DNA of 64,000 nucleotides, taken from assembly GCA_964576655.1 (NCBI GenBank), contig CAZNVR010000001.1, positions 26,637 to 90,636 of the forward strand, read 5' to 3'. Source of the DNA: an uncultured Legionella sp. (GTDB lineage Bacteria; Pseudomonadota; Gammaproteobacteria; Legionellales; Legionellaceae). This document shows positions 921-26,760 of the stretch, piece by piece (position 1 is the stretch's first letter; each line of letters starts with the position of its first letter). The translations under genes and the position numbers were made by a program. Under the pieces are notes generated by a model that did no database searches, was not told the DNA's origin, and saw only the letters and a list, made by a program, of their open reading frames with translations.

Positions 921-966
921 AAATTATTCACTTTCATATTAAAATCTTTTTTTATTGTTCTTAGTT

Positions 967-1290
967 TCATATGTTTTTTCCGACATAAGACAGTTCACCT
1001 GTTGCAATTCCATTTTCGTGTTTAAAATTCTTGATCACTATTTTGATAGAGGTAAACATGTCATTAGATTTCACATTTAATGGTTTGATTCCCTTCCTAT
1101 TATCTAAATTATCTTGAAAGACATCTAGACTTATCGAAACCTTTTCTTCTTCTTTGATCTCTTCGAAAATATCTGGGTAATCTTGTGGAGGATATATCTC
1201 ATCGTTTATAAGATAATTCGGTGGATACACTTTATGAATAGTATCTTTACAAAACCCTGGACAATCAATTTTTACTCTGTATTTTTTCAT
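967..1290 (-). CDS. hypothetical protein, paralog of ORF 19568-19909
   Basis: 107 aa starting MKKYRVKIDCPGF. The first 38 nt are identical to 19872-19909. The shared YP(D/E)IFEEIKEE segment is also present. Its SD (GGAGAG) lies in a hairpin at 1296-1311. Confidence 0.65.
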   Translation of the reverse strand: MKKYRVKIDCPGFCKDTIHKVYPPNYLINDEIYPPQDYPDIFEEIKEEEKVSISLDVFQDNLDNRKGIKPLNVKSNDMFTSIKIVIKNFKHENGIATGELSYVGKNI

Positions 1291-1363
1291 ATTATCATCG
1301 TCTCTCCGATGCGCCTCTCTCCCTATTATGCACCTATAGGGTCATGGCTTTAAGTTAGCACTG

Positions 1364-1385
1364 AATTGGTCACCACTAGTTGCTG
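1364..1385. repeat. direct repeat copy 1 (AATTGGTCACCACTAGTTGCTG) inside island A
   Basis: Matches 1515-1537 (AATTGGTCGCCCCCTAGTTGCTT), 151 nt away. Confidence 0.7.
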
Positions 1386-1514
1386 TGGAGGCAGGGCTTG
1401 ATACCTGCTGATGATCTTGTTGAGATAGTCGATTACAACTACGCCTTCATTACACCGATCAATAGTATCATCTAAGTCCTTATTCGCACGTCCTTCCGTG
1501 CCGCTCCACAATTA

Positions 1515-1537
1515 AATTGGTCGCCCCCTAGTTGCTT
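1515..1537. repeat. direct repeat copy 2 inside island A
   Basis: See 1364-1385. Consensus is AATTGGTCRCC(M)CTAGTTGCT. Confidence 0.7.
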
Positions 1538-1660
1538 GCTGGGTACGCTCTGACTTAACTTCACGCGCAATTAATCGTTCTACCCAATGTCAGATTAATT
1601 ACTAGGCTCCGTCGCGCATATTACAAGCAACATCGGGGCGTTGTTATAATAATCTGTACC

Positions 1661-4506: not shown

Positions 4507-5040
4507 TCAATCCCACCAATCTAATAAATGTTGTCGTAAAATTTTACTAAAAAGCATTAAATCCTGTCGTTTTAATGAGTCTTCTTTTTTATATAATGCG
4601 AGAATACTAGCTCTATTAGCTTTAGGATGTGAAACCCATTCAACACTTCCATCTTCATGTTCTATTGTTGTATGAGGATATGCTGTATGATATTCATCTA
4701 ATTCGGTGCTAATATATTCATCATCTATAAGTCGTTGTAATGCGAATCGACATTCTTTCATTTGTTCAGCATTTTTAGGCGCATCATTTGAATGAGCATC
4801 ATTTAAAAAATGTTTTTCCATCAATTCTAATTTAAGACATATTAATTTCGCGAAATAATACCAATCCCAATCAAATGATGTAAGTGCATATTTTCCAAAT
4901 ATGTAAAGTAATTTTAAACGATATGCTACATGAGATGGTCGGAATAAACGAAAAAAATCTACAATCCGACCATAATAGTATTCAATTTCAAAACGTAATA
5001 TGTCGAGTTTTGATTTTTTTGTACGTGATGGAAATAACAT
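4507..5040 (-). CDS. hypothetical protein
   Basis: 177 aa with an AAAGGA SD upstream. No motif recognised. Confidence 0.65.
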   Translation of the reverse strand: MLFPSRTKKSKLDILRFEIEYYYGRIVDFFRLFRPSHVAYRLKLLYIFGKYALTSFDWDWYYFAKLICLKLELMEKHFLNDAHSNDAPKNAEQMKECRFALQRLIDDEYISTELDEYHTAYPHTTIEHEDGSVEWVSHPKANRASILALYKKEDSLKRQDLMLFSKILRQHLLDWWD

Positions 5041-5071
5041 GAAATAATCCTTTCATTAAAAATCTGCATAT

Positions 5072-5080
5072 ATTATACCC
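5072..5080 (-). promoter_or_regulatory. extended -10-like element GGGTATAAT upstream of ORF 4507-5040
   Basis: Minus strand reads TTGGGTATAATATATGCAG..AAAGGATTATTTC-ATG. Confidence 0.35.
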
Positions 5081-5152
5081 AATAAGGATTATAATTAGTT
5101 GTAATAATGTTAAAGGTTCATTCATGATTGACAATAGATAATGAATCATTAT

Positions 5153-5338
5153 TTAATCCTCAGACATATAGATTAAAATACAGCCAGTCACGATCGAAAT
5201 TCCCATCAGTATAGTGACGTGTGGAAAGCTCCAAATGAATGATACAATTGTGAGAACTATAATAGATAATACGACAACGATAATTGGTACTAAAATTAAT
5301 AAACTACCTAATATACGTCGAGTGTTTTGGGTTATCAT
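5153..5338 (-). CDS. small membrane protein (2 TM)
   Basis: 61 aa, ILGSLLILVPIIVVVLSIIVLTIVSFIW..ILMGISIVTGCILIYM. Confidence 0.6.
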   Translation of the reverse strand: MITQNTRRILGSLLILVPIIVVVLSIIVLTIVSFIWSFPHVTILMGISIVTGCILIYMSED

Positions 5339-5465
5339 ATTTATTACACCACCTTCTAATTAAAAAAACAAGTAATAGTAAAACAAAGATTGTTGTTAAA
5401 ATGCCAAAAAACCAAAAAGCAATAATTCCAATAATCATTAATGTAAAATATCCAAGAAATGACAT
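5304..5465 (-). CDS. small membrane protein (53 aa), below ORF-track cutoff
   Basis: MSFLGYFTLMIIGIIAFWFFGILTTIFVLLLLVFLIRRWCNKYDNPKHSTYIR*. It starts 2 nt after the stop of ORF 5467-5679 and overlaps the next ORF by 35 nt. Confidence 0.4.
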   Translation of the reverse strand: MSFLGYFTLMIIGIIAFWFFGILTTIFVLLLLVFLIRRWCNKYDNPKHSTYIR

Positions 5466-5466
5466 A

Positions 5467-5679
5467 TTAATCATCTAATGCCATTACAACAGCATTTCCT
5501 ACACAATAGACCTGTATTGCTAAGTATCCTACTTCTGATATATTATTTGGATGTATAAAAAAATGGAACAACCCTATGCTGAAAGCCATATTAAGGGTAT
5601 AAAATATCGTAAAACGAATAATTTTAATATCCCATAATAAAGTAATCCAACATAAACAACATGCGATAAGTCGTTGCAT
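5467..5679 (-). CDS. small membrane protein
   Basis: 70 aa, hydrophobic throughout (LIACCLCWITLLW.., FSIGLFHFFI.., LAIQVYCVGNAVV). Confidence 0.55.
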   Translation of the reverse strand: MQRLIACCLCWITLLWDIKIIRFTIFYTLNMAFSIGLFHFFIHPNNISEVGYLAIQVYCVGNAVVMALDD

Positions 5680-5701
5680 AAAAGCTCCTTACTTTATTAT
5701 A

Positions 5702-6726: not shown

Positions 6727-7221
6727 TTATTTTGTATTAATGTTAGAATGTTTTGCACAACAACATTTTTTATGTAGATCCTCTAATAATTTTTTATTTT
6801 CATAAATATTTCCTACTACGTAAAAACATTTATTTGCAAAAGGATATTGATCAGTAGTCAATGTATAGATGTTTTTTTGATTTTCATATGTATAGAGTGT
6901 TGAATCTTCTATAACATACCATCCATTTCCCGATACATTATCGCCATCGTTTTCACCATTATCATATATTCCAAATTTAACTTCGCATAATGAATAGCCA
7001 GTAGGATAATCATAACGAAGTATATCACCCTCATAAATTTCTTGACCATTTGAATCATATGAATTAGTTGATTGCATCACAATCATATCTGCTATATTTG
7101 GATGGCTTTTTTTATCAATATAAAAAGTCCAATGAAAATCGTATATTGTAAATGATGTCATTATAGATAATGACGGATTATCTACAGTTGGACCCCATCC
7201 TCTAAAATTGATGTCTTTCAT
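6727..7221 (-). CDS. YopX-family protein
   Basis: 164 aa. Motifs INFRGW, NGQEIYEGDIL and C-terminal VVGNIYEN are typical of the YopX domain. Confidence 0.6.
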   Translation of the reverse strand: MKDINFRGWGPTVDNPSLSIMTSFTIYDFHWTFYIDKKSHPNIADMIVMQSTNSYDSNGQEIYEGDILRYDYPTGYSLCEVKFGIYDNGENDGDNVSGNGWYVIEDSTLYTYENQKNIYTLTTDQYPFANKCFYVVGNIYENKKLLEDLHKKCCCAKHSNINTK

Positions 7222-7236
7222 ATTGGATTTTCCTCT

Positions 7237-7434
7237 CTAAATATAAAATAAAATATCAAGTGAACAAATTTCTTTCATATCATTACATATTATACGAGCA
7301 ACGGATATTTGATGATGAGGATTTAAAAATTTATATAATTCACCTCGTTTAATTGCTTGTTTCATTCCTTTGCACTTAATATATGGCTTATTATTAAATA
7401 AAATCATGTAATGCATATTGTGCGTGTGCCTCAA
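7237..7434 (-). CDS. hypothetical protein (start uncertain; ATG 7416 or 7407 possible)
   Basis: 65 aa ORF that overlaps the 3' end of ORF 7394-7573. Confidence 0.45.
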   Translation of the reverse strand: MRHTHNMHYMILFNNKPYIKCKGMKQAIKRGELYKFLNPHHQISVARIICNDMKEICSLDILFYI

Positions 7435-7573
7435 GATAGTTCACAGCTTCGCGATACGTCAAAAATATATTGAGAAGTTTCATACCATTGGTGACGTAAT
7501 ATTGATCATCTTTTTTATAAATATAGAATTTCGTAGTCTTTTTGCTGTCTATATAGAGTAGGTTATAATTCAT
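7394..7573 (-). CDS. hypothetical protein (59 aa), below ORF-track cutoff
   Basis: A strong SD (AGGAGGAAACGAT-ATG) precedes MNYNLLYIDSKKTTKFYIYKKDDQYYVTNGMKLLNIFLTYREAVNYLEAHAQYALHDFI*. Confidence 0.6.
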   Translation of the reverse strand: MNYNLLYIDSKKTTKFYIYKKDDQYYVTNGMKLLNIFLTYREAVNYLEAHAQYALHDFI

Positions 7574-7979: not shown

Positions 7980-8519
7980 CTAATCGTTTGTAGATGTGTC
8001 ATGATGATCGATTGGCTCCCATTCCTTGGTTTTCATAATCTCTTGAACTTGATCAAATGAAATTGGTCTATAATCATTGACATCTATACCAACATCATGC
8101 TGTCGTAAATTTGGAAGTATCTCTAATGTACCATGACTATGGCCATGGAGATTCCAACTTCCATGATGTGAGTTGCGCCAAGTTCTCATCGCATAATGAC
8201 ATAAAACTATTAATTGTTTTTGATACTTAAGTTCATAATAGTCTTTAACCCATTCAAAGCGTTCAGCATAGATTTGTTTATCGTGATTTCCTTTAACTAA
8301 GTAGATCCGACCTTTTAAAGAATCAAGAATATCTTTTGTGGTGTTATATGATCCTAAAGCAAAATCACCTAAATGATATATTTCATCAGTTAAGCTGACT
8401 GTATCATTCCATCGTTTTACAAGTTCTTCATTCATCTCTTGAACAGAAGCAAATGGACGATTGCAATATTTTATAACATTGGCATGATTAAAATGCGTAT
8501 CGGCAGTAAAGAAAATCAT
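7980..8519 (-). CDS. calcineurin-like metallophosphoesterase
   Basis: 179 aa. Motifs DTHFNH, HLGDF, VKGNHD, LCHY and HGHSHG appear in the canonical order. Confidence 0.8.
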   Translation of the reverse strand: MIFFTADTHFNHANVIKYCNRPFASVQEMNEELVKRWNDTVSLTDEIYHLGDFALGSYNTTKDILDSLKGRIYLVKGNHDKQIYAERFEWVKDYYELKYQKQLIVLCHYAMRTWRNSHHGSWNLHGHSHGTLEILPNLRQHDVGIDVNDYRPISFDQVQEIMKTKEWEPIDHHDTSTND

Positions 8520-10140: not shown

Positions 10141-11094
10141 TTATCTTTCTAAATATGCATTACTAACAATCTTAAGTTGGAGTCTACCGACTTCGTATTC
10201 ATATCGCTCAATAGTAGGTCTAATCACAATTCCTTCTCGTATCTGATTCTCATATAATTCTGTCTTTCCTTCGGCTAAATCTTTGATTTTGAGCTCACTA
10301 TATGGCCCACGGTATATGAGTGGACAGAACTGCATACCTTGACCCATCGACTGCATTTCATCATAACTGAGCCATCTGCCATGATCGTAGACGTCAAAGA
10401 CTCTAATATCAGGTTCGGAACGCCCATATCTAAGGTCTTGCACAGGTCCGAACACTTCTCCATAGACTGCAAGTCCTTCGTGCGCCTGAAGCCAAGTCGA
10501 TAACCATGGACAATTCTTTAAAGCATTCCACCACATATTATTATCGGCTTCTTTAACCCATCGAGTGCGTGATCCACAATGCATCTGTCCGTTAACAAAA
10601 ACGAATCGACCATTTGCTCCATGGACCTTCTCTGTTGCGACGATCTCTTCATTCTCTTGGAATAAATGTCCATATCTATGCCATGATTCAACGTCATAAA
10701 TTGGATAAACGCCTTCTGGTGCATTGGCTTCTTCAGCGAATGAACTAATGCCTCGAATAGGTGGATCATATCGTGTGATACCAATTATCGGTGCCGCATC
10801 ATCTCCTTCTTTTAATCCTTCAGGTGATGGTATCAATAATCCTTGAGAATATACACCCCTAAAACGACGAACTTTAATTCGTTTGCTATCTTTCAGGAAG
10901 TCGAATTGTGGAGTATCTGGTACAACGCTGTCTGGCTGTATATAAACCGCAAGATCTCCTTCGTGCCAATCAGCTAGGCGAACACAGATTGTAAAATTCC
11001 ATATCTTAACAATACCTAAGGTATCGGCATTTGGATGTTTTTCGATTGCTCCAAGTTGAACAACGTCAGCTCTATGGGTTGATTTTGTTTCCAT
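10141..11094 (-). CDS. RNA ligase, Rnl2/DraRnl(Rnl5)-like: N-terminal OB-like domain plus adenylyltransferase domain
   Basis: 317 aa. Motif I is EKVHGANGRF (T4 Rnl2 has EKIHGTNFS). VYGEVFGPVQD matches VFGEFAGPGIQ. The N-terminal 110 aa resemble the OB module of DRB0094-type ligases. Confidence 0.7.
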   Translation of the reverse strand: METKSTHRADVVQLGAIEKHPNADTLGIVKIWNFTICVRLADWHEGDLAVYIQPDSVVPDTPQFDFLKDSKRIKVRRFRGVYSQGLLIPSPEGLKEGDDAAPIIGITRYDPPIRGISSFAEEANAPEGVYPIYDVESWHRYGHLFQENEEIVATEKVHGANGRFVFVNGQMHCGSRTRWVKEADNNMWWNALKNCPWLSTWLQAHEGLAVYGEVFGPVQDLRYGRSEPDIRVFDVYDHGRWLSYDEMQSMGQGMQFCPLIYRGPYSELKIKDLAEGKTELYENQIREGIVIRPTIERYEYEVGRLQLKIVSNAYLER

Positions 11095-11304: not shown

Positions 11305-11305
11305 G

Positions 11306-11378
11306 AGCTAGCGGTAGGACTCGAACCTACAACCTCCGCATTACAAATGCGGAGCTCTGCCAATTGAGCTACGCTAGC
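11306..11378 (-). tRNA. tRNA-Thr(UGU): tRNA-Thr (anticodon UGU), no encoded CCA
   Basis: Hand-folded cloverleaf: GCTAGCG-TA-GCTC-AATTGGCA-GAGC-T-CCGCA-TTTGTAA-TGCGG-AGGTT-GTAGG-TTCGAGT-CCTAC-CGCTAGC-T. All four stems are perfect. Confidence 0.9.
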
Positions 11379-11569: not shown

Positions 11570-12052
11570 TTATTTATTCACCTTATGTCTACTAATATAC
11601 CGTTTAAGTTCATCGAAATTCTTAAAAACCATGTTGCCTTTCATCTTTGATACCGTCAAGGGCCAACCACTAAGTTTCCTAGATGTTACGATATAGCATG
11701 GAATGTCATGATAACCAGCAAAGGTAAGTTCTGAAACTGTTCCAGTTGAGTACTTGGTAAAATAGCAGATGATAAAACTGGTTCGGTACTTGATTTGATT
11801 CAAGTCATTCAACATTATCTCAACTTGAAGTGGGATAGGAAACTTGTCCCATTGATGTGGTTTAATCTTACTTAAGTCGTACTTTTGATGAAACTCTACT
11901 TCATCTACACAGGGATCGAAGCATTGTAAATCGTATTTCGCCAACCATTTACGCAACATCTTGCGCCATTGAGCTCCAAATGTCTTCATTCCTGACATTG
12001 AACCAGCCAAGTAAATTACCTTCTTATTTTTGAATATCATGGATATTAGCAA
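11570..12052 (-). CDS. nucleoside 2-deoxyribosyltransferase-like superfamily protein (start uncertain: TTG 12052 or ATG 12040)
   Basis: The N-terminal KKVIYLAGSMSG..W...L......FDP pattern is typical of the N-deoxyribosyltransferase/DUF4406 fold. Confidence 0.4.
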   Translation of the reverse strand: MLISMIFKNKKVIYLAGSMSGMKTFGAQWRKMLRKWLAKYDLQCFDPCVDEVEFHQKYDLSKIKPHQWDKFPIPLQVEIMLNDLNQIKYRTSFIICYFTKYSTGTVSELTFAGYHDIPCYIVTSRKLSGWPLTVSKMKGNMVFKNFDELKRYISRHKVNK

Positions 12053-12069
12053 TATCCTTTGTAAGGATA

Positions 12070-12381
12070 CTACTCTCCTATTTTAGTATTAGTTAAGTCT
12101 TCTGGACTTAACTTATTTTCATCTATTAAGGTCTGATAAACATCACCATTTTCAATGATTTTTTTATCCTCATACGGTGCTGCGATGCGACGATAGAACT
12201 CAAGTTTAGCAGATTCTAATGCACCAACCACATCATTGACTCCAATGTACTTTAAGCCTTTATAACGTAAGTATTTAATGACTGTTAGTGTAACAAGATA
12301 ATTTAATTGACCAGGATCTGCTGGACTATTATTTTCGTGATAGGCGATGTAGGTTTTTAGTTCTTTTGTTAGATACGGCAT
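12070..12381 (-). CDS. hypothetical protein (GQLNYLVT motif)
   Basis: 103 aa with a strong SD (AAAAGGAGCAATA-ATG). Overlaps the upstream ORF by 53 nt. Confidence 0.6.
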   Translation of the reverse strand: MPYLTKELKTYIAYHENNSPADPGQLNYLVTLTVIKYLRYKGLKYIGVNDVVGALESAKLEFYRRIAAPYEDKKIIENGDVYQTLIDENKLSPEDLTNTKIGE

Positions 12382-13490: not shown

Positions 13491-13510
13491 AATATGTATC
13501 CTATCTTTTT

Positions 13511-13520
13511 ATTATACTAG
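13511..13520 (-). promoter_or_regulatory. -10-like element CTAGTATAAT upstream of ORF 13263-13490
   Basis: Minus strand reads GGTCCACCTAGTATAATAAAAAGATAGGATACATATT-ATG. Confidence 0.35.
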
Positions 13521-13718
13521 GTGGACCGAATCACAGGCTAGCAGATGATTCGGTCCGTTTGGCAACCTAGTTTGACTGGCGCAATCAGGTCAAAGCTTCT
13601 ATATGCTGATTCTTTGACGGTACGAATTACTGGCAGTATACTCAGTTAAGTTCCCGTATACTGCATTGCATATACCTAACCCCTCTCCCCTAACTAGATC
13701 GCTGATTGCCTGATAGCT
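13521..13718 (-). ncRNA. candidate structured RNA (GC-rich island B), class unknown
   Basis: ORF-free, about 47% G+C by hand count. It has an 11-bp hairpin (13523-13556), an 8-bp hairpin (13634-13663) and mutually exclusive pairings of TTTGAC/GTCAAAG/CTTTGAC segments. Strand is inferred from context. Confidence 0.45.
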
Positions 13719-19349: not shown

Positions 19350-19571
19350 TTAAATATTATTATTAGCTTTTAATTCGCACATTTCAACAAACTGTATTAA
19401 ATGAGGAATTAACATCTTCACTTGCTTCTTTGTCAAACACATGCGACTTGATTCATCACAACCAAGCCACATACACAAAGAAGAAGAAAATGTTTCAAGA
19501 GTACAATTGCTGTTATATTTATCTTTAAATTTAATTAATTTAAGGTCTTTATTCTTTTTTAATACTTTCAT
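19350..19571 (-). CDS. hypothetical protein
   Basis: 73 aa. Confidence 0.55.
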   Translation of the reverse strand: MKVLKKNKDLKLIKFKDKYNSNCTLETFSSSLCMWLGCDESSRMCLTKKQVKMLIPHLIQFVEMCELKANNNI

Positions 19572-19909
19572 TTTTTCACCTCACACCATAAATCCGCTTC
19601 AATTTCTTCAATCCTACTGTTGAATTTAACATTCTTCAACACTACTCGCATTGGCCATTGCATCTCGTTAGACTCTGGATTTATAGAGTCTCTAGGATCA
19701 TCTTTAAATAGCCCTACGATACCACCACGACAAACTGCTGGACTAACCAAAATCTTTTTTTCTTCTTTGATCTCTTCAAATATTTCAGGGTAGTGAACTG
19801 GATCGATAGATGGGATTTTTGCTTCTAGATATGGCACCAAAGAAGACACAGTCAATATTGTGTTCTTATAGAACCCTGGACAATCAATTTTTACTCTGTA
19901 TTTTTTCAT
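19568..19909 (-). CDS. hypothetical protein, paralog of ORF 967-1290
   Basis: The start is moved to ATG 19909 (ATGA overlap with the upstream stop). It begins MKKYRVKIDCPGF, identical to the paralog. Confidence 0.65.
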   Translation of the reverse strand: MKKYRVKIDCPGFYKNTILTVSSLVPYLEAKIPSIDPVHYPEIFEEIKEEKKILVSPAVCRGGIVGLFKDDPRDSINPESNEMQWPMRVVLKNVKFNSRIEEIEADLWCEVKK

Positions 19910-25309: not shown

Positions 25310-25676
25310 TTTTGAAAATCACCTCATTTAAATCTTGTAGCCATTGAGATGATTGAATTGATCCATCATCATTGAACTGTCGCACAACCCCTACATTTGC
25401 TAATGATACTATATTAAGTGCGGCATGTGGTGATCCATTGAGTCGAGGAATTTCACCTATCATAGCTTTCTTAGGAAAATTTAACTTTGTTACGTTTTCT
25501 TTTAATACAACAACTTCACTCTGAGGAAAACCTTGAATTTGATCAATTTTCAAAATTAAATAATTTCCACCTACATTCTTAACTTTGCATTTTAATAAAA
25601 CATCATAATCTGTAGCATAAAAAGAAGATATAATCTTATCATTTGATAATTGCATATTAAAATCCAATAACTTCAT
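25296..25676 (-). CDS. hypothetical protein
   Basis: 126 aa. Confidence 0.6.
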   Translation of the reverse strand: MKLLDFNMQLSNDKIISSFYATDYDVLLKCKVKNVGGNYLILKIDQIQGFPQSEVVVLKENVTKLNFPKKAMIGEIPRLNGSPHAALNIVSLANVGVVRQFNDDGSIQSSQWLQDLNEVIFKNEDK

Positions 25677-26172
25677 GTAAAGTTACTCGATGATCAAAAC
25701 CCTCTTCATCATCAGGTACTTCTAATTGAGCATAAAATGTATGATGCAATCTATTGACCATTTCTGTTGCATCTTGTATACTAATGCCTTTTTGCATAGC
25801 ACATTGAACCGCACGTTGAGCAGCAAGTGGCATTTCAATATCAATATATAAAAGTCCAACAGATGCATTGTATTCACGAGCTAATTTTATCCATGATTGC
25901 CGTATTGTTTTTGTTGGATTAATATCATCAATAATTAATAAATTACCAGAAATTAACGCATAGCGAGCAAAAATCATTTGTTGAGCGTGATTTAAACGTT
26001 TTCCATCAATACGTGTTCCACCTAAAGCTTTATAAATCAAGCGATACGCAAGAGTTTTTCCAGCTCCTTGCGGTCCACATAACACAATAACACAACATTG
26101 ACTAAGTGATTCAACAAACTTCATAGATCCATTATAGCATGAATTAGATGTTGTTTGTATCATCATTATCAT
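25657..26172 (-). CDS. P-loop kinase, polynucleotide-kinase (T4 Pnk kinase domain)-like; start uncertain
   Basis: Walker A is LCGPQGAGKT. LIIDDINPTKTIRQSWIKLAREY..IDIEMPLAAQRA parallels T4 Pnkp [34 protein letters not shown] (recalled). Confidence 0.5.
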   Translation of the reverse strand: MIMMIQTTSNSCYNGSMKFVESLSQCCVIVLCGPQGAGKTLAYRLIYKALGGTRIDGKRLNHAQQMIFARYALISGNLLIIDDINPTKTIRQSWIKLAREYNASVGLLYIDIEMPLAAQRAVQCAMQKGISIQDATEMVNRLHHTFYAQLEVPDDEEGFDHRVTLHEVIGF

Positions 26173-26464: not shown

Positions 26465-26760
26465 TGACGAATCTCGATTTGTGACATTTTTGGATACTTA
26501 TCATCTAGCCGGAACATATAGACAGAACCGTCTGCTAAACACCATACTTTAGCGACGCCATATTGCTTTGGATCATCATCAATTAATTCTCCTAATAGTC
26601 GCTGTAATTGTTCATATTTAACATCAATCAATTTACGACTAATTTTTGATGCATTATCAAATGCAAACAATGGCCATAAGTGATTTAATCCATTGTTGTC
26701 AATAGCACCAATAATCATTGATCCATGATCTTGCTTAATTAATTTTAATCCTATGTCCAT
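26461..26760 (-). CDS. hypothetical protein (leaderless geometry)
   Basis: 99 aa. The ATG lies 6 nt after TGGTATAAT. Confidence 0.6.
   Translation of the reverse strand: MDIGLKLIKQDHGSMIIGAIDNNGLNHLWPLFAFDNASKISRKLIDVKYEQLQRLLGELIDDDPKQYGVAKVWCLADGSVYMFRLDDKYPKMSQIEIRQ

Follow-up and report, generated by a model that had tools for sequence, protein, structure and literature searches.

A G+C-rich element with a tRNA-shaped core, a candidate structured RNA beside an RNA ligase gene of an uncultured phage

The 64,000 nt of DNA analysed here (positions 26,637 to 90,636 of contig CAZNVR010000001.1, hereafter the window) come from an uncultured phage, about 100 kb in size and known from groundwater metagenomes, with an overall G+C content of 33% and nearly every gene densely packed on the minus strand. 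Between the stop codon (1661) of an Rnl1-type RNA ligase gene and the ATG (1290) of a 107-aa open reading frame (ORF) the window carries a 370-nt element, for which the coordinates and neighbours given in an earlier note on this DNA proved correct (Table 1). The element combines an outlying base composition, no coding signal, a strand-specific predicted structure, a repeated motif and a tRNA-shaped shell. It is a real and unusual sequence feature, and its tRNA-like core is intriguing but unproven.

Table 1. Features of the element, its flanking genes and a possible sibling gap, in window coordinates (p, pair probability).
Feature	Position	Strand	Basis or remark
Whole ORF-free, G+C-enriched element	1291-1660	minus	read as sense-strand RNA
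M1, rod-like hairpin, ~120 nt	1518-1640	minus	closed by CGCCCC/GGGGCG and GUUGCUUG/CAAGCAAC, then A-CCA
M2, tRNA-shaped shell	1380-1510	minus	predicted fold and ARAGORN chimera
M2 acceptor-like helix, 7 bp, UGUGGAG/CUCCACA	1510-1504 / 1390-1384	minus	six pairs p 0.94-1.0, innermost (157-271) 0.72
M2 D-like hairpin, GCAC-GGAAGGAC-GUGC	1501-1486	minus	2-nt linker from acceptor; p 0.97-1.0
M2 T-like hairpin, GCAGG-UAUCAAGC-CCUGC	1408-1391	minus	no spacer to acceptor 3' strand
Irregular hairpin region, 76 nt (RNA 177-252)	1409-1484	minus	stands in for anticodon arm and variable loop
Motif copy 1, AGCAACUAG-GGGGCG-ACCAAUU	1515-1537	minus	local alignment
Motif copy 2, CAGCAACUAG-UGGUG-ACCAAUU	1364-1385	minus	3' trailer of M2
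3' hairpin, GCC...CCCUAU-loop-AUAGGG...GGC	1313-1348	minus	folding
Hairpin CAUCG-GAGAGA-CGAUG	1296-1311	minus	p 0.99, -6.4 kcal/mol
Rnl1-type RNA ligase, 377 aa, PF09511	1661-2794	minus	gene upstream of element
107-aa ORF	967-1290	minus	downstream of element; paralogue of ORF 19568-19909
ORF-free G+C-rich gap (0.43) between two small ORFs	13491-13718	minus	possible sibling, uncertain

Results

Composition and coding potential

Inside a tightly packed array of minus-strand genes, the element stands out as an ORF-free G+C outlier, which argues for its reading as a structured RNA. Its G+C content of 0.46 (0.48 in the core) compares with a window mean of 0.33 (standard deviation 0.045 over 200-nt windows), in agreement with the enrichment claimed in the earlier note. 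This value exceeds the genome mean by about 3 standard deviations and is among the highest in the 64 kb, rivalled by few coding stretches only. The other ORF-free gaps of at least 120 nt have G+C contents of 0.18-0.33, with the exceptions of 13491-13718 (0.43) and of a cut-off gap at the end of the window (0.39), and the element is the largest G+C-rich non-coding stretch in the 64 kb. These figures support the view that it is compositionally foreign to its genome. In A+T-rich genomes, a long intergenic region rich in G+C is an accepted predictor of structured RNAs (PMC6429828, PMC8723152).

A non-coding nature is likewise supported. The element had been described as free of ORFs, and stop codons do interrupt 6 of its 6 frames, the longest ATG-started ORF spanning 14 codons; the description needs to be qualified for a TTG-started, stop-free run of 53 codons (1350-1511, minus strand). 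In all frames the interruptions are a mixture of TAA, TAG and TGA, so that stop-codon reassignment rescues no frame. The 53-residue frame matches no Pfam family and has no tblastn match in 50,697 phage records, and against 1.84 billion protein representatives it retrieves four weak matches. The best-scoring of these align one short part of the query repeatedly (in 7, 3 and 9 stretches), the top match presents tandem repeat units in BLASTP, and the protein matches were hence rejected as tandem-repeat artefacts. The earlier note had raised the prospect of a decayed coding remnant detectable by tblastx, but tblastx and tblastn searches of the element against the genes that occupy the same slot in a relative phage, including its PNKP region, returned nothing. 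Public gene calls leave the region of the element empty, and three independent assemblies are 100% identical over it.

Predicted fold and strand

Read as minus-strand RNA (RNA position i being window position 1661-i), the element has a minimum free energy (MFE) of -108.9 kcal/mol, with a z-score of -2.62 against 100 dinucleotide shuffles, compared with -94.3 kcal/mol and a z-score of -1.17 for the plus strand. Set among non-overlapping windows of 370 nt from this strand of the genome, 172 in all, it has the lowest MFE and ranks third by z-score (-3.38, 24 shuffles). The pairings of the earlier note had been found by eye; z-scores of -2.6 to -3.4 on the minus strand now place the fold modestly beyond chance. 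Windows of 120 nt placed arbitrarily over the element fold unremarkably, and the fold signal thus stems from long-range domains. The MFE structure includes 10 G-U pairs, and mirroring it on the plus strand costs 20.8 kcal/mol of stability, a loss that favours the sense strand and sustains the minus-strand assignment made at the outset from the orientation of the flanking genes. The element probably folds as RNA, with modest statistical support for a sense-strand structure.

The 5' part of the predicted structure is the rod M1, closed by CGCCCC/GGGGCG and GUUGCUUG/CAAGCAAC with pair probabilities of about 1.0 (0.96-1.0). The closing CGCCCC/GGGGCG helix outcompetes the pairing between the two ends of the element that had been proposed earlier, to whose two helices the ensemble assigns probabilities of about 0.00 and about 0.1. 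Over 1520-1645 the z-score reaches -3.9 and the MFE structure equals the centroid, with a predicted rod of 36 bp that ends in the apical hairpin AAUUAAUC/GAUUAAUU around a 16-nt loop. This hairpin (0.98), the hairpin CACG-GAAGGA-CGUG (1.0) and the local hairpin at 1311-1296 (0.99), all three put forward in the earlier note, are well supported by the pair probabilities. By eye, UGGGUA and CUGAC of the M1 loop could pair with UACCCA and GUCAG downstream, forming a possible pseudoknot.

The last hairpin of the element (1296-1311) is the sole GAGAGA-loop hairpin within the window, and displays a Shine-Dalgarno (SD)-like GGAGAG in its loop, 5 nt ahead of the ATG of ORF 967-1290. A hairpin with the same loop on another stem (UCAG-GAGAGA-CUGA) precedes the start codon of the PNKP gene in a relative (L082 7415-7428). 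The two may be forms of one conserved hairpin for translation initiation, its stem altered by compensatory changes, a suggestion drawn from two sequences that share no significant alignment. No intrinsic terminator and no better-than-chance promoter were detected inside or beside the element, nor any antiterminator. With neither promoter nor terminator of its own detectable, the element would be transcribed in the same message as its neighbours, and on these grounds co-transcription is almost certainly the case.

A tRNA-shaped module

The predicted fold of M2 conforms to cloverleaf geometry, with a 7-bp acceptor-like helix (RNA positions 151-157/271-277), a 2-nt linker, a D-like hairpin (160-175) and a T-like hairpin (253-270), and the stems of this shell consist of perfect Watson-Crick pairs throughout. 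Its acceptor-like helix is what stands of a long-range helix previously given as 10 bp, which exists with high probability but is only 7 bp long (1510-1504/1390-1384), C-C and G-G mismatches following beyond. The cloverleaf-like constrained fold of M2 has a free energy of -38.8 kcal/mol against an MFE of -39.4 kcal/mol, a difference of 0.6 kcal/mol. On its 3' side the shell is followed by G-CAA, with no encoded CCA. The 76-nt insert contains no 7-nt anticodon loop, and with a hairpin of this size replacing the anticodon arm M2 cannot decode. An intron-containing tRNA was ruled out, as no anticodon-stem halves flank the insert.

The shell was further assessed with a chimera in which the outer 26 nt (5') and 29 nt (3') of M2 were joined by the anticodon arm of the phage tRNA-Thr. 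ARAGORN, at default settings, accepted this chimera as a 75-nt tRNA. Among control chimeras that kept the acceptor helix, 71 of 40,000 (0.18%) were accepted when the inner parts were shuffled, and 18 of 40,000 (0.045%) when they were taken from elsewhere in the genome. A scan of the element for tRNA shells (all positions, inserts of 0-200) had M2 as its only solution, and found none on the plus strand of the element and none in 13491-13718. The tRNA shape of M2 is best taken as a lead, backed by modest statistics, and not as family membership.

A repeated motif and a possible sibling

The direct repeat of 22 nt described in the earlier note (1364-1385 and 1515-1537) is borne out by an alignment score of 27 against 15.2 +/- 2.0 in shuffled sequences, 0 of 300 of which reached it. 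The duplicated module of about 150 nt that the repeat had seemed to hint at did not materialize: the 22-nt motif is all that the two halves of the element, each of about 150 nt, have in common. A looser pattern, AACTAG-N(4-7)-CCAA, occurs 3 times in the 64 kb (0.31 expected), always on the minus strand, twice in the element and once in the gap 13491-13718. The tetranucleotide CTAG is about three times rarer in the window than base composition predicts (66 observed, about 196 expected), with exceptions in the element (3), the gap 13491-13718 (4) and the tRNA (2).

The gap 13491-13718 has a z-score of -3.56 and a predicted four-way junction; GCAAUCAG/CUGAUUGC closes the junction, after which come G-CCA and then a perfect 12-bp hairpin. 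Rfam at gathering threshold finds nothing in this gap, which has no significant alignment to the element and shares only short motifs with it; kinship between the two is a possibility suggested by these motifs. The gap lies roughly where a relative phage has a tRNA-Gln/tRNA-Thr pair. The succession of a helix and A-CCA in M1, and of a junction and G-CCA in the gap, was noted from the sequence and is given little weight, because the tRNA-Thr of the phage encodes no CCA.

Known RNA families and searches for relatives

The absence of any recognizable RNA class, already remarked upon in the earlier note, was confirmed by Rfam, tRNA and transfer-messenger RNA (tmRNA) searches. Rfam 15, run on the whole window at gathering score, places no family in the element, with riboswitches, ribozymes, group I/II introns, GOLLD, ROOL, 6S, RNase P, Y RNA-like and T-box RNAs among those covered, and none at E<=10 on 1372-1518; at E<=10 on 1100-1900 (801 nt) the sole matches are noise in the flanking ORF, with none in the element. 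Neither at gathering score nor, on the 801 nt, at E<=10 does the tRNA model RF00005 match the element. ARAGORN at default settings reports no tRNA and no tmRNA there, and its calls in intron mode or at lowered thresholds were poor, inconsistent and discarded. A tmRNA, whether in one or two pieces, was ruled out, given that the acceptor strand of M1 does not complement that of M2 and that there is no tag frame, and look-alike words of the hammerhead (CUGAUGA) and of the T-box (GUGGUGACC) were dismissed for want of Rfam support. As regards riboswitches and attenuators, the element has no mutually exclusive gating structures and no terminator, and the alternative to the SD hairpin has a probability of about 0.

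Relatives of the element were sought in several ways. Five motif scans of IMG/VR, which included three other segments of the element, gave either nothing or matches that inspection with nhmmer and by eye put down to chance. Synteny was compared across the 80 best IMG/VR Rnl1 loci and the two closest Logan/NCBI relatives, and in none of these is there a sequence similar to the element downstream of Rnl1. Beyond the window, another 14 kb of this phage contain no more copies of it. With no homologue found, covariation is not available. To judge from these sequence searches, the element is a single-genome orphan that belongs to no known RNA family.

Phage, neighbouring genes and gene order

The same phage is represented in ENA ERZ909576/SRR2177968 (an 80-kb contig), in Logan SRR5855237 and in an NCBI contig of 103.5 kb. 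Besides T4-like genes for replication and recombination, it encodes GroEL, ribonucleotide reductase, portal and terminase. Two RNA ligases are encoded, the Rnl1 next to the element and a PF09414/PF21189 ligase of 317 aa at 10141-11094; the latter lies about 210 nt downstream of the sole tRNA detected in the window, a tRNA-Thr (UGU) at 11305-11378. No PNKP homologue was found within the window. Separate AAA_33 kinase-like (25657-26172) and metallophosphoesterase (7980-8519) ORFs are present, and might be a source of end-healing.

Out of 5.8 billion sequences, the closest Rnl1 proteins share 55% and 50% identity with the one encoded in the window. The gene order in the window is RlaP, ClpP, a 38-aa ORF, Rnl1, then the element, the 107-aa ORF and small ORFs, followed by a 135-aa ORF and dCMP deaminase. 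In the relative with the 55% identical ligase the order is RlaP, a 39-aa ORF, Rnl1, then a 68-aa ORF, PNKP and a 111-aa ORF, followed by a 141-aa ORF and dCMP deaminase. This comparison places the element in a variable slot that holds PNKP in the relative.

The 107-aa ORF has no homologue other than its paralogue at 19568-19909. The paralogue has no leader resembling the element, as had been observed before, and its likeness to the 107-aa ORF starts about 8-12 nt ahead of the ATG, which marks the 3' boundary of the element. The weak ribosome-binding site (RBS) that ORF 967-1290 has of its own, GAUGAUAA, lies within the duplicated unit common to the paralogue. Two observations concern the continuity of the sequence across this boundary. 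A JGI 3300009031 contig of 1134 nt (Ga0103682_10171966, L089) is 100% identical to the 107-aa ORF (window 958-1292) and turns into unrelated bacterial-like DNA (DUF420 and a truncated PNPOx-like gene) exactly at 1291/1292; the junction looks chimeric because it truncates a bacterial gene, and is probably an assembly chimera, although its breakpoint matches the boundary between element and ORF. The Logan SRR5855237 contigs (L081, L110) break about 30 nt inside ORF 967-1290, in a stretch common to the paralogue, which is consistent with a repeat-induced assembly gap and not with real heterogeneity.

Discussion

The reading that we tentatively favour is that of an orphan, co-transcribed structured-RNA spacer, partly derived from tRNA, which would serve as a processing or stability module or as a source of stable RNAs. 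If functional, the element would work as minus-strand RNA, carried on a polycistronic message with the Rnl1 gene and the 107-aa ORF. It would fold in three parts, comprising an ACCA-ended rod of about 120 nt, a tRNA-shaped module of about 130 nt and two small 3' hairpins, the last of which would display the SD-like sequence of the next ORF in its loop. The tRNA-derived module would be an intercistronic element for processing and stability, a kind of 'tRNA punctuation', with host RNase P cutting at the tRNA-like shell and RNase III or E, possibly, at the rod. Cleavage would separate the fate of the ligase message from that of the ORF downstream, and would leave stable structured ends or free stable small RNAs, as in phage tRNA clusters. 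The predicted shapes that resemble RNase substrates are, in M1, the helix with ACCA and the 36-bp rod and, in M2, the acceptor/T stack. The transcription and cleavage of the element, like any role that it may have, are inferred.

Several observations weigh against this proposal. At the level of structure, the T-like hairpin has an ensemble probability of just 0.16, some coding windows attain a similar fold z-score, and a blind shell scan yields at least one solution in 7 of 94 random 411-nt segments (7%). M2 is not matched by the Rfam tRNA model RF00005 at E<=10 on 147 nt (1372-1518), and lacks the canonical U8, A14, A21 and 7-nt T-loop, having C at position 8, G at 14, C at 21, GG in the D-like loop and an 8-nt T-like loop (UAUCAAGC). 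At the level of conservation, near and distant DNA searches of INPHARED and distant searches of PLSDB find no similarity to the element, and the repeated motif gives chance matches or nothing in IMG/VR, JGI metagenomes and GTDB genomes. Furthermore, nhmmer of the element against Rnl1-linked loci and the relative finds nothing similar, a covariance model of domain 1 retrieved only itself in 566 kb, and the three assemblies, being identical, provide no population variation. Lastly, the slot is a rearranged, variable region beside a duplicated gene, with 68-aa, PNKP and 111-aa genes in the closest relative. The earlier note had listed a lack of conservation in related genomes among the findings that would speak against the element. 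No such conservation was found, although its absence is not decisive because the relatives are distant ones (Rnl1 55% identical or less).

Nearly as likely as the favoured reading is the possibility that the element is a non-functional relic, either the decaying remnant of a tRNA cluster or foreign DNA brought in by a recombination event that removed PNKP and introduced the small-gene copy, and that it is still present because the event is recent. Such an origin fits a variable slot in which a relative has PNKP, an adjacent 107-aa ORF that is itself a duplicate, and an element that has no homologues. It also fits the contrast between a relative with 8 tRNAs and degenerate tRNA-like sequences and the one tRNA of the 64-kb window, which makes tRNA gene loss plausible. 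With tRNA ancestry alone, the G+C content, the number of CTAG sites and the self-complementarity would all be accounted for, and M2 lacks the conserved tRNA tertiary nucleotides and fails the Rfam model. Decay does not, however, readily explain why the stems of the shell are all intact despite drifted loop identities, why the 22-nt motif is retained in two otherwise unrelated halves, or why the structure is strand-specific. Phage genomes shed junk fast, yet this is the largest stretch of its kind in the 64 kb, and it does not lie where the tRNA cluster of the relative sits. If it is a relic, the element would be the record of an Rnl1 and PNKP RNA-repair cassette broken by recombination.

A cis-regulatory leader (a riboswitch, a thermometer or a protein-binding leader) that gates translation of ORF 967-1290 through the SD hairpin is unlikely. 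The element does lie directly upstream of that ORF, the SD-like GGAGAG is part of a stable hairpin, the paralogue has no such leader, and a GAGAGA-loop hairpin also stands ahead of the PNKP start in the relative. The earlier note had seen here a switch between this hairpin and the pairing of the element's ends, but the competing pairing has a probability of about 0 and the idea is hence not supported. There is no terminator or antiterminator, and no cis-regulatory family of Rfam is matched even at E<=10. The SD sequence lies in the hairpin loop and is hence exposed, not sequestered, the ORF has an RBS of its own (GAUGAUAA) in common with the paralogue, and 370 nt is long for the leader of a 107-aa ORF.

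The favoured reading has a more ambitious form, which we consider decidedly unlikely, in which M1 and M2 would be expressed and, through processing by RNase P, yield stable RNAs, M2 a tRNA mimic without an anticodon and M1 a rod ending in ACCA, both occupying the PNKP slot of the relatives and used together with the two RNA ligases, for instance as decoy, sensor or substrate against host defences that target tRNA. If this holds, the two would represent a new class of phage RNA, tRNA mimics with a link to RNA repair.

A site acting at the level of DNA, be it an origin of replication, a site for recombination or packaging, or a region bound by protein, with the 22-bp repeats as binding sites, is very unlikely. 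Two such direct repeats lie 151 bp apart, a looser third copy in 13491-13718 has the same orientation, and the slot is prone to recombination, with one JGI contig switching at 1291/1292. The good repeats nonetheless number two only, there is no skew inflection, the terminase and replication modules are not close by, the JGI junction looks like an assembly chimera, and a strand asymmetry in folding is not expected of a duplex DNA site. Finally, a decayed or unconventional coding sequence, whether as a pseudogene, as a recoded gene or as the TTG ORF of 53 codons, is very improbable, since the stop-free run on the sense strand is outweighed by mixed stop types in each frame, the lack of Pfam and phage tblastn matches, the tandem-repeat nature of the four matches among 1.84 billion representatives, the lack of tblastx similarity to the relative's PNKP region and the empty public gene calls.

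Comparison with known systems bears on the tRNA-derived spacer that we favour. The nearest relative phage (L104, Logan SRR21487923_11868) has an 8-tRNA cluster at 4566-5700 and 6748-6897, with a non-tRNA spacer of about 600 nt. Within this cluster, 5111-5212 is an Rfam tRNA match (35 bits) whose anticodon arm is replaced by 45 nt, and another Rnl1 phage has a similar tRNA match with an altered anticodon region (L038 7929-8034). At about 5300-5373 the cluster of L104 also contains an unannotated degenerate cloverleaf with the T-loop UAUAAAU and CCA at its end. The two tRNA-like genes and M2 have in common a shell of acceptor, D-arm and T-arm with a long insertion in place of the anticodon arm, and all three are found in Rnl1-encoding phages, in the sense of the neighbouring genes. 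The former, however, score above the Rfam tRNA threshold (35-42 bits) and have canonical D and T loops, whereas M2 does neither; M2 also differs in its larger insert (76 nt), its 8-nt T-like loop, its G-CAA end and its location outside any tRNA cluster, and has no sequence similarity to them. In several of the Rnl1 loci examined, tRNA genes lie about 0.1-3.5 kb from the ligase gene.

tRNA punctuation, in which RNase P cuts at tRNA-like structures, operates in mitochondrial transcripts, E. coli operon mRNAs and phage tRNA precursors. The element would resemble it in placing a tRNA-shaped fold between two cistrons of one transcript, and the M1 helix followed by N-CCA (...GGGGCG-A-CCA) resembles a substrate determinant of RNase P, in both cases as predicted structure only. 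The tmRNA is similar in length (about 360 nt) and has a tRNA-like domain with a long extension as anticodon arm. The element differs from it in having no ARAGORN or Rfam tmRNA match, lowered thresholds included, and no alanine-rich terminal tag frame, and M2 has a U-A pair at 3-70 instead of G3-U70 and no terminal ACCA.

Among the non-coding RNAs of phages, GOLLD (RF02032) and ROOL are, like the element, G+C-enriched and non-coding; they are long and often encoded beside tRNAs. The element has no Rfam match to them at any threshold, is shorter (370 nt) and lacks their conserved motifs. One of the Rnl1 phages (L061, IMG/VR 3300034272_001354) encodes a full-length GOLLD RNA (8039-8450, 306 bits) about 3 kb downstream of its Rnl1 gene, and beside it a tRNA with a 20-nt insertion in the D loop (7407-7497). 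In T4, RNAs C and D are encoded along with tRNA genes. Their likeness to M1 and M2 is conceptual, as phage structured RNAs of about 120-140 nt near tRNA and RNA-repair genes; no INPHARED phage, T4 among them, is similar to the element in sequence, and the element is a candidate RNA, whereas C and D are stable small RNAs, the function of which is still unknown (PMC9697503).

If the element is functional, the short list of phage non-coding RNAs would gain a tRNA-shaped RNA that has no anticodon and a rod RNA that ends in ACCA, and the adjacency to Rnl1 and the use of the PNKP slot would link RNA mimicry to the arms race of tRNA damage and repair. The heuristic of the long G+C-rich intergenic region would then also hold inside uncultured phage genomes. 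Functional or relic, the value of the element is that of a lead for transcriptomics and not of an established discovery.

A separate observation concerns the strongest local fold of the window, which lies elsewhere, at 12035-12165 on the minus strand (z-score -8.2 in a 120-nt scan, -4.8 on 131 nt). It consists of two near-perfect hairpins, one of 9 bp and one of 12 bp, where ORF 11570-12052 borders on ORF 12070-12381, and may be a terminator or an RNA-stability element.

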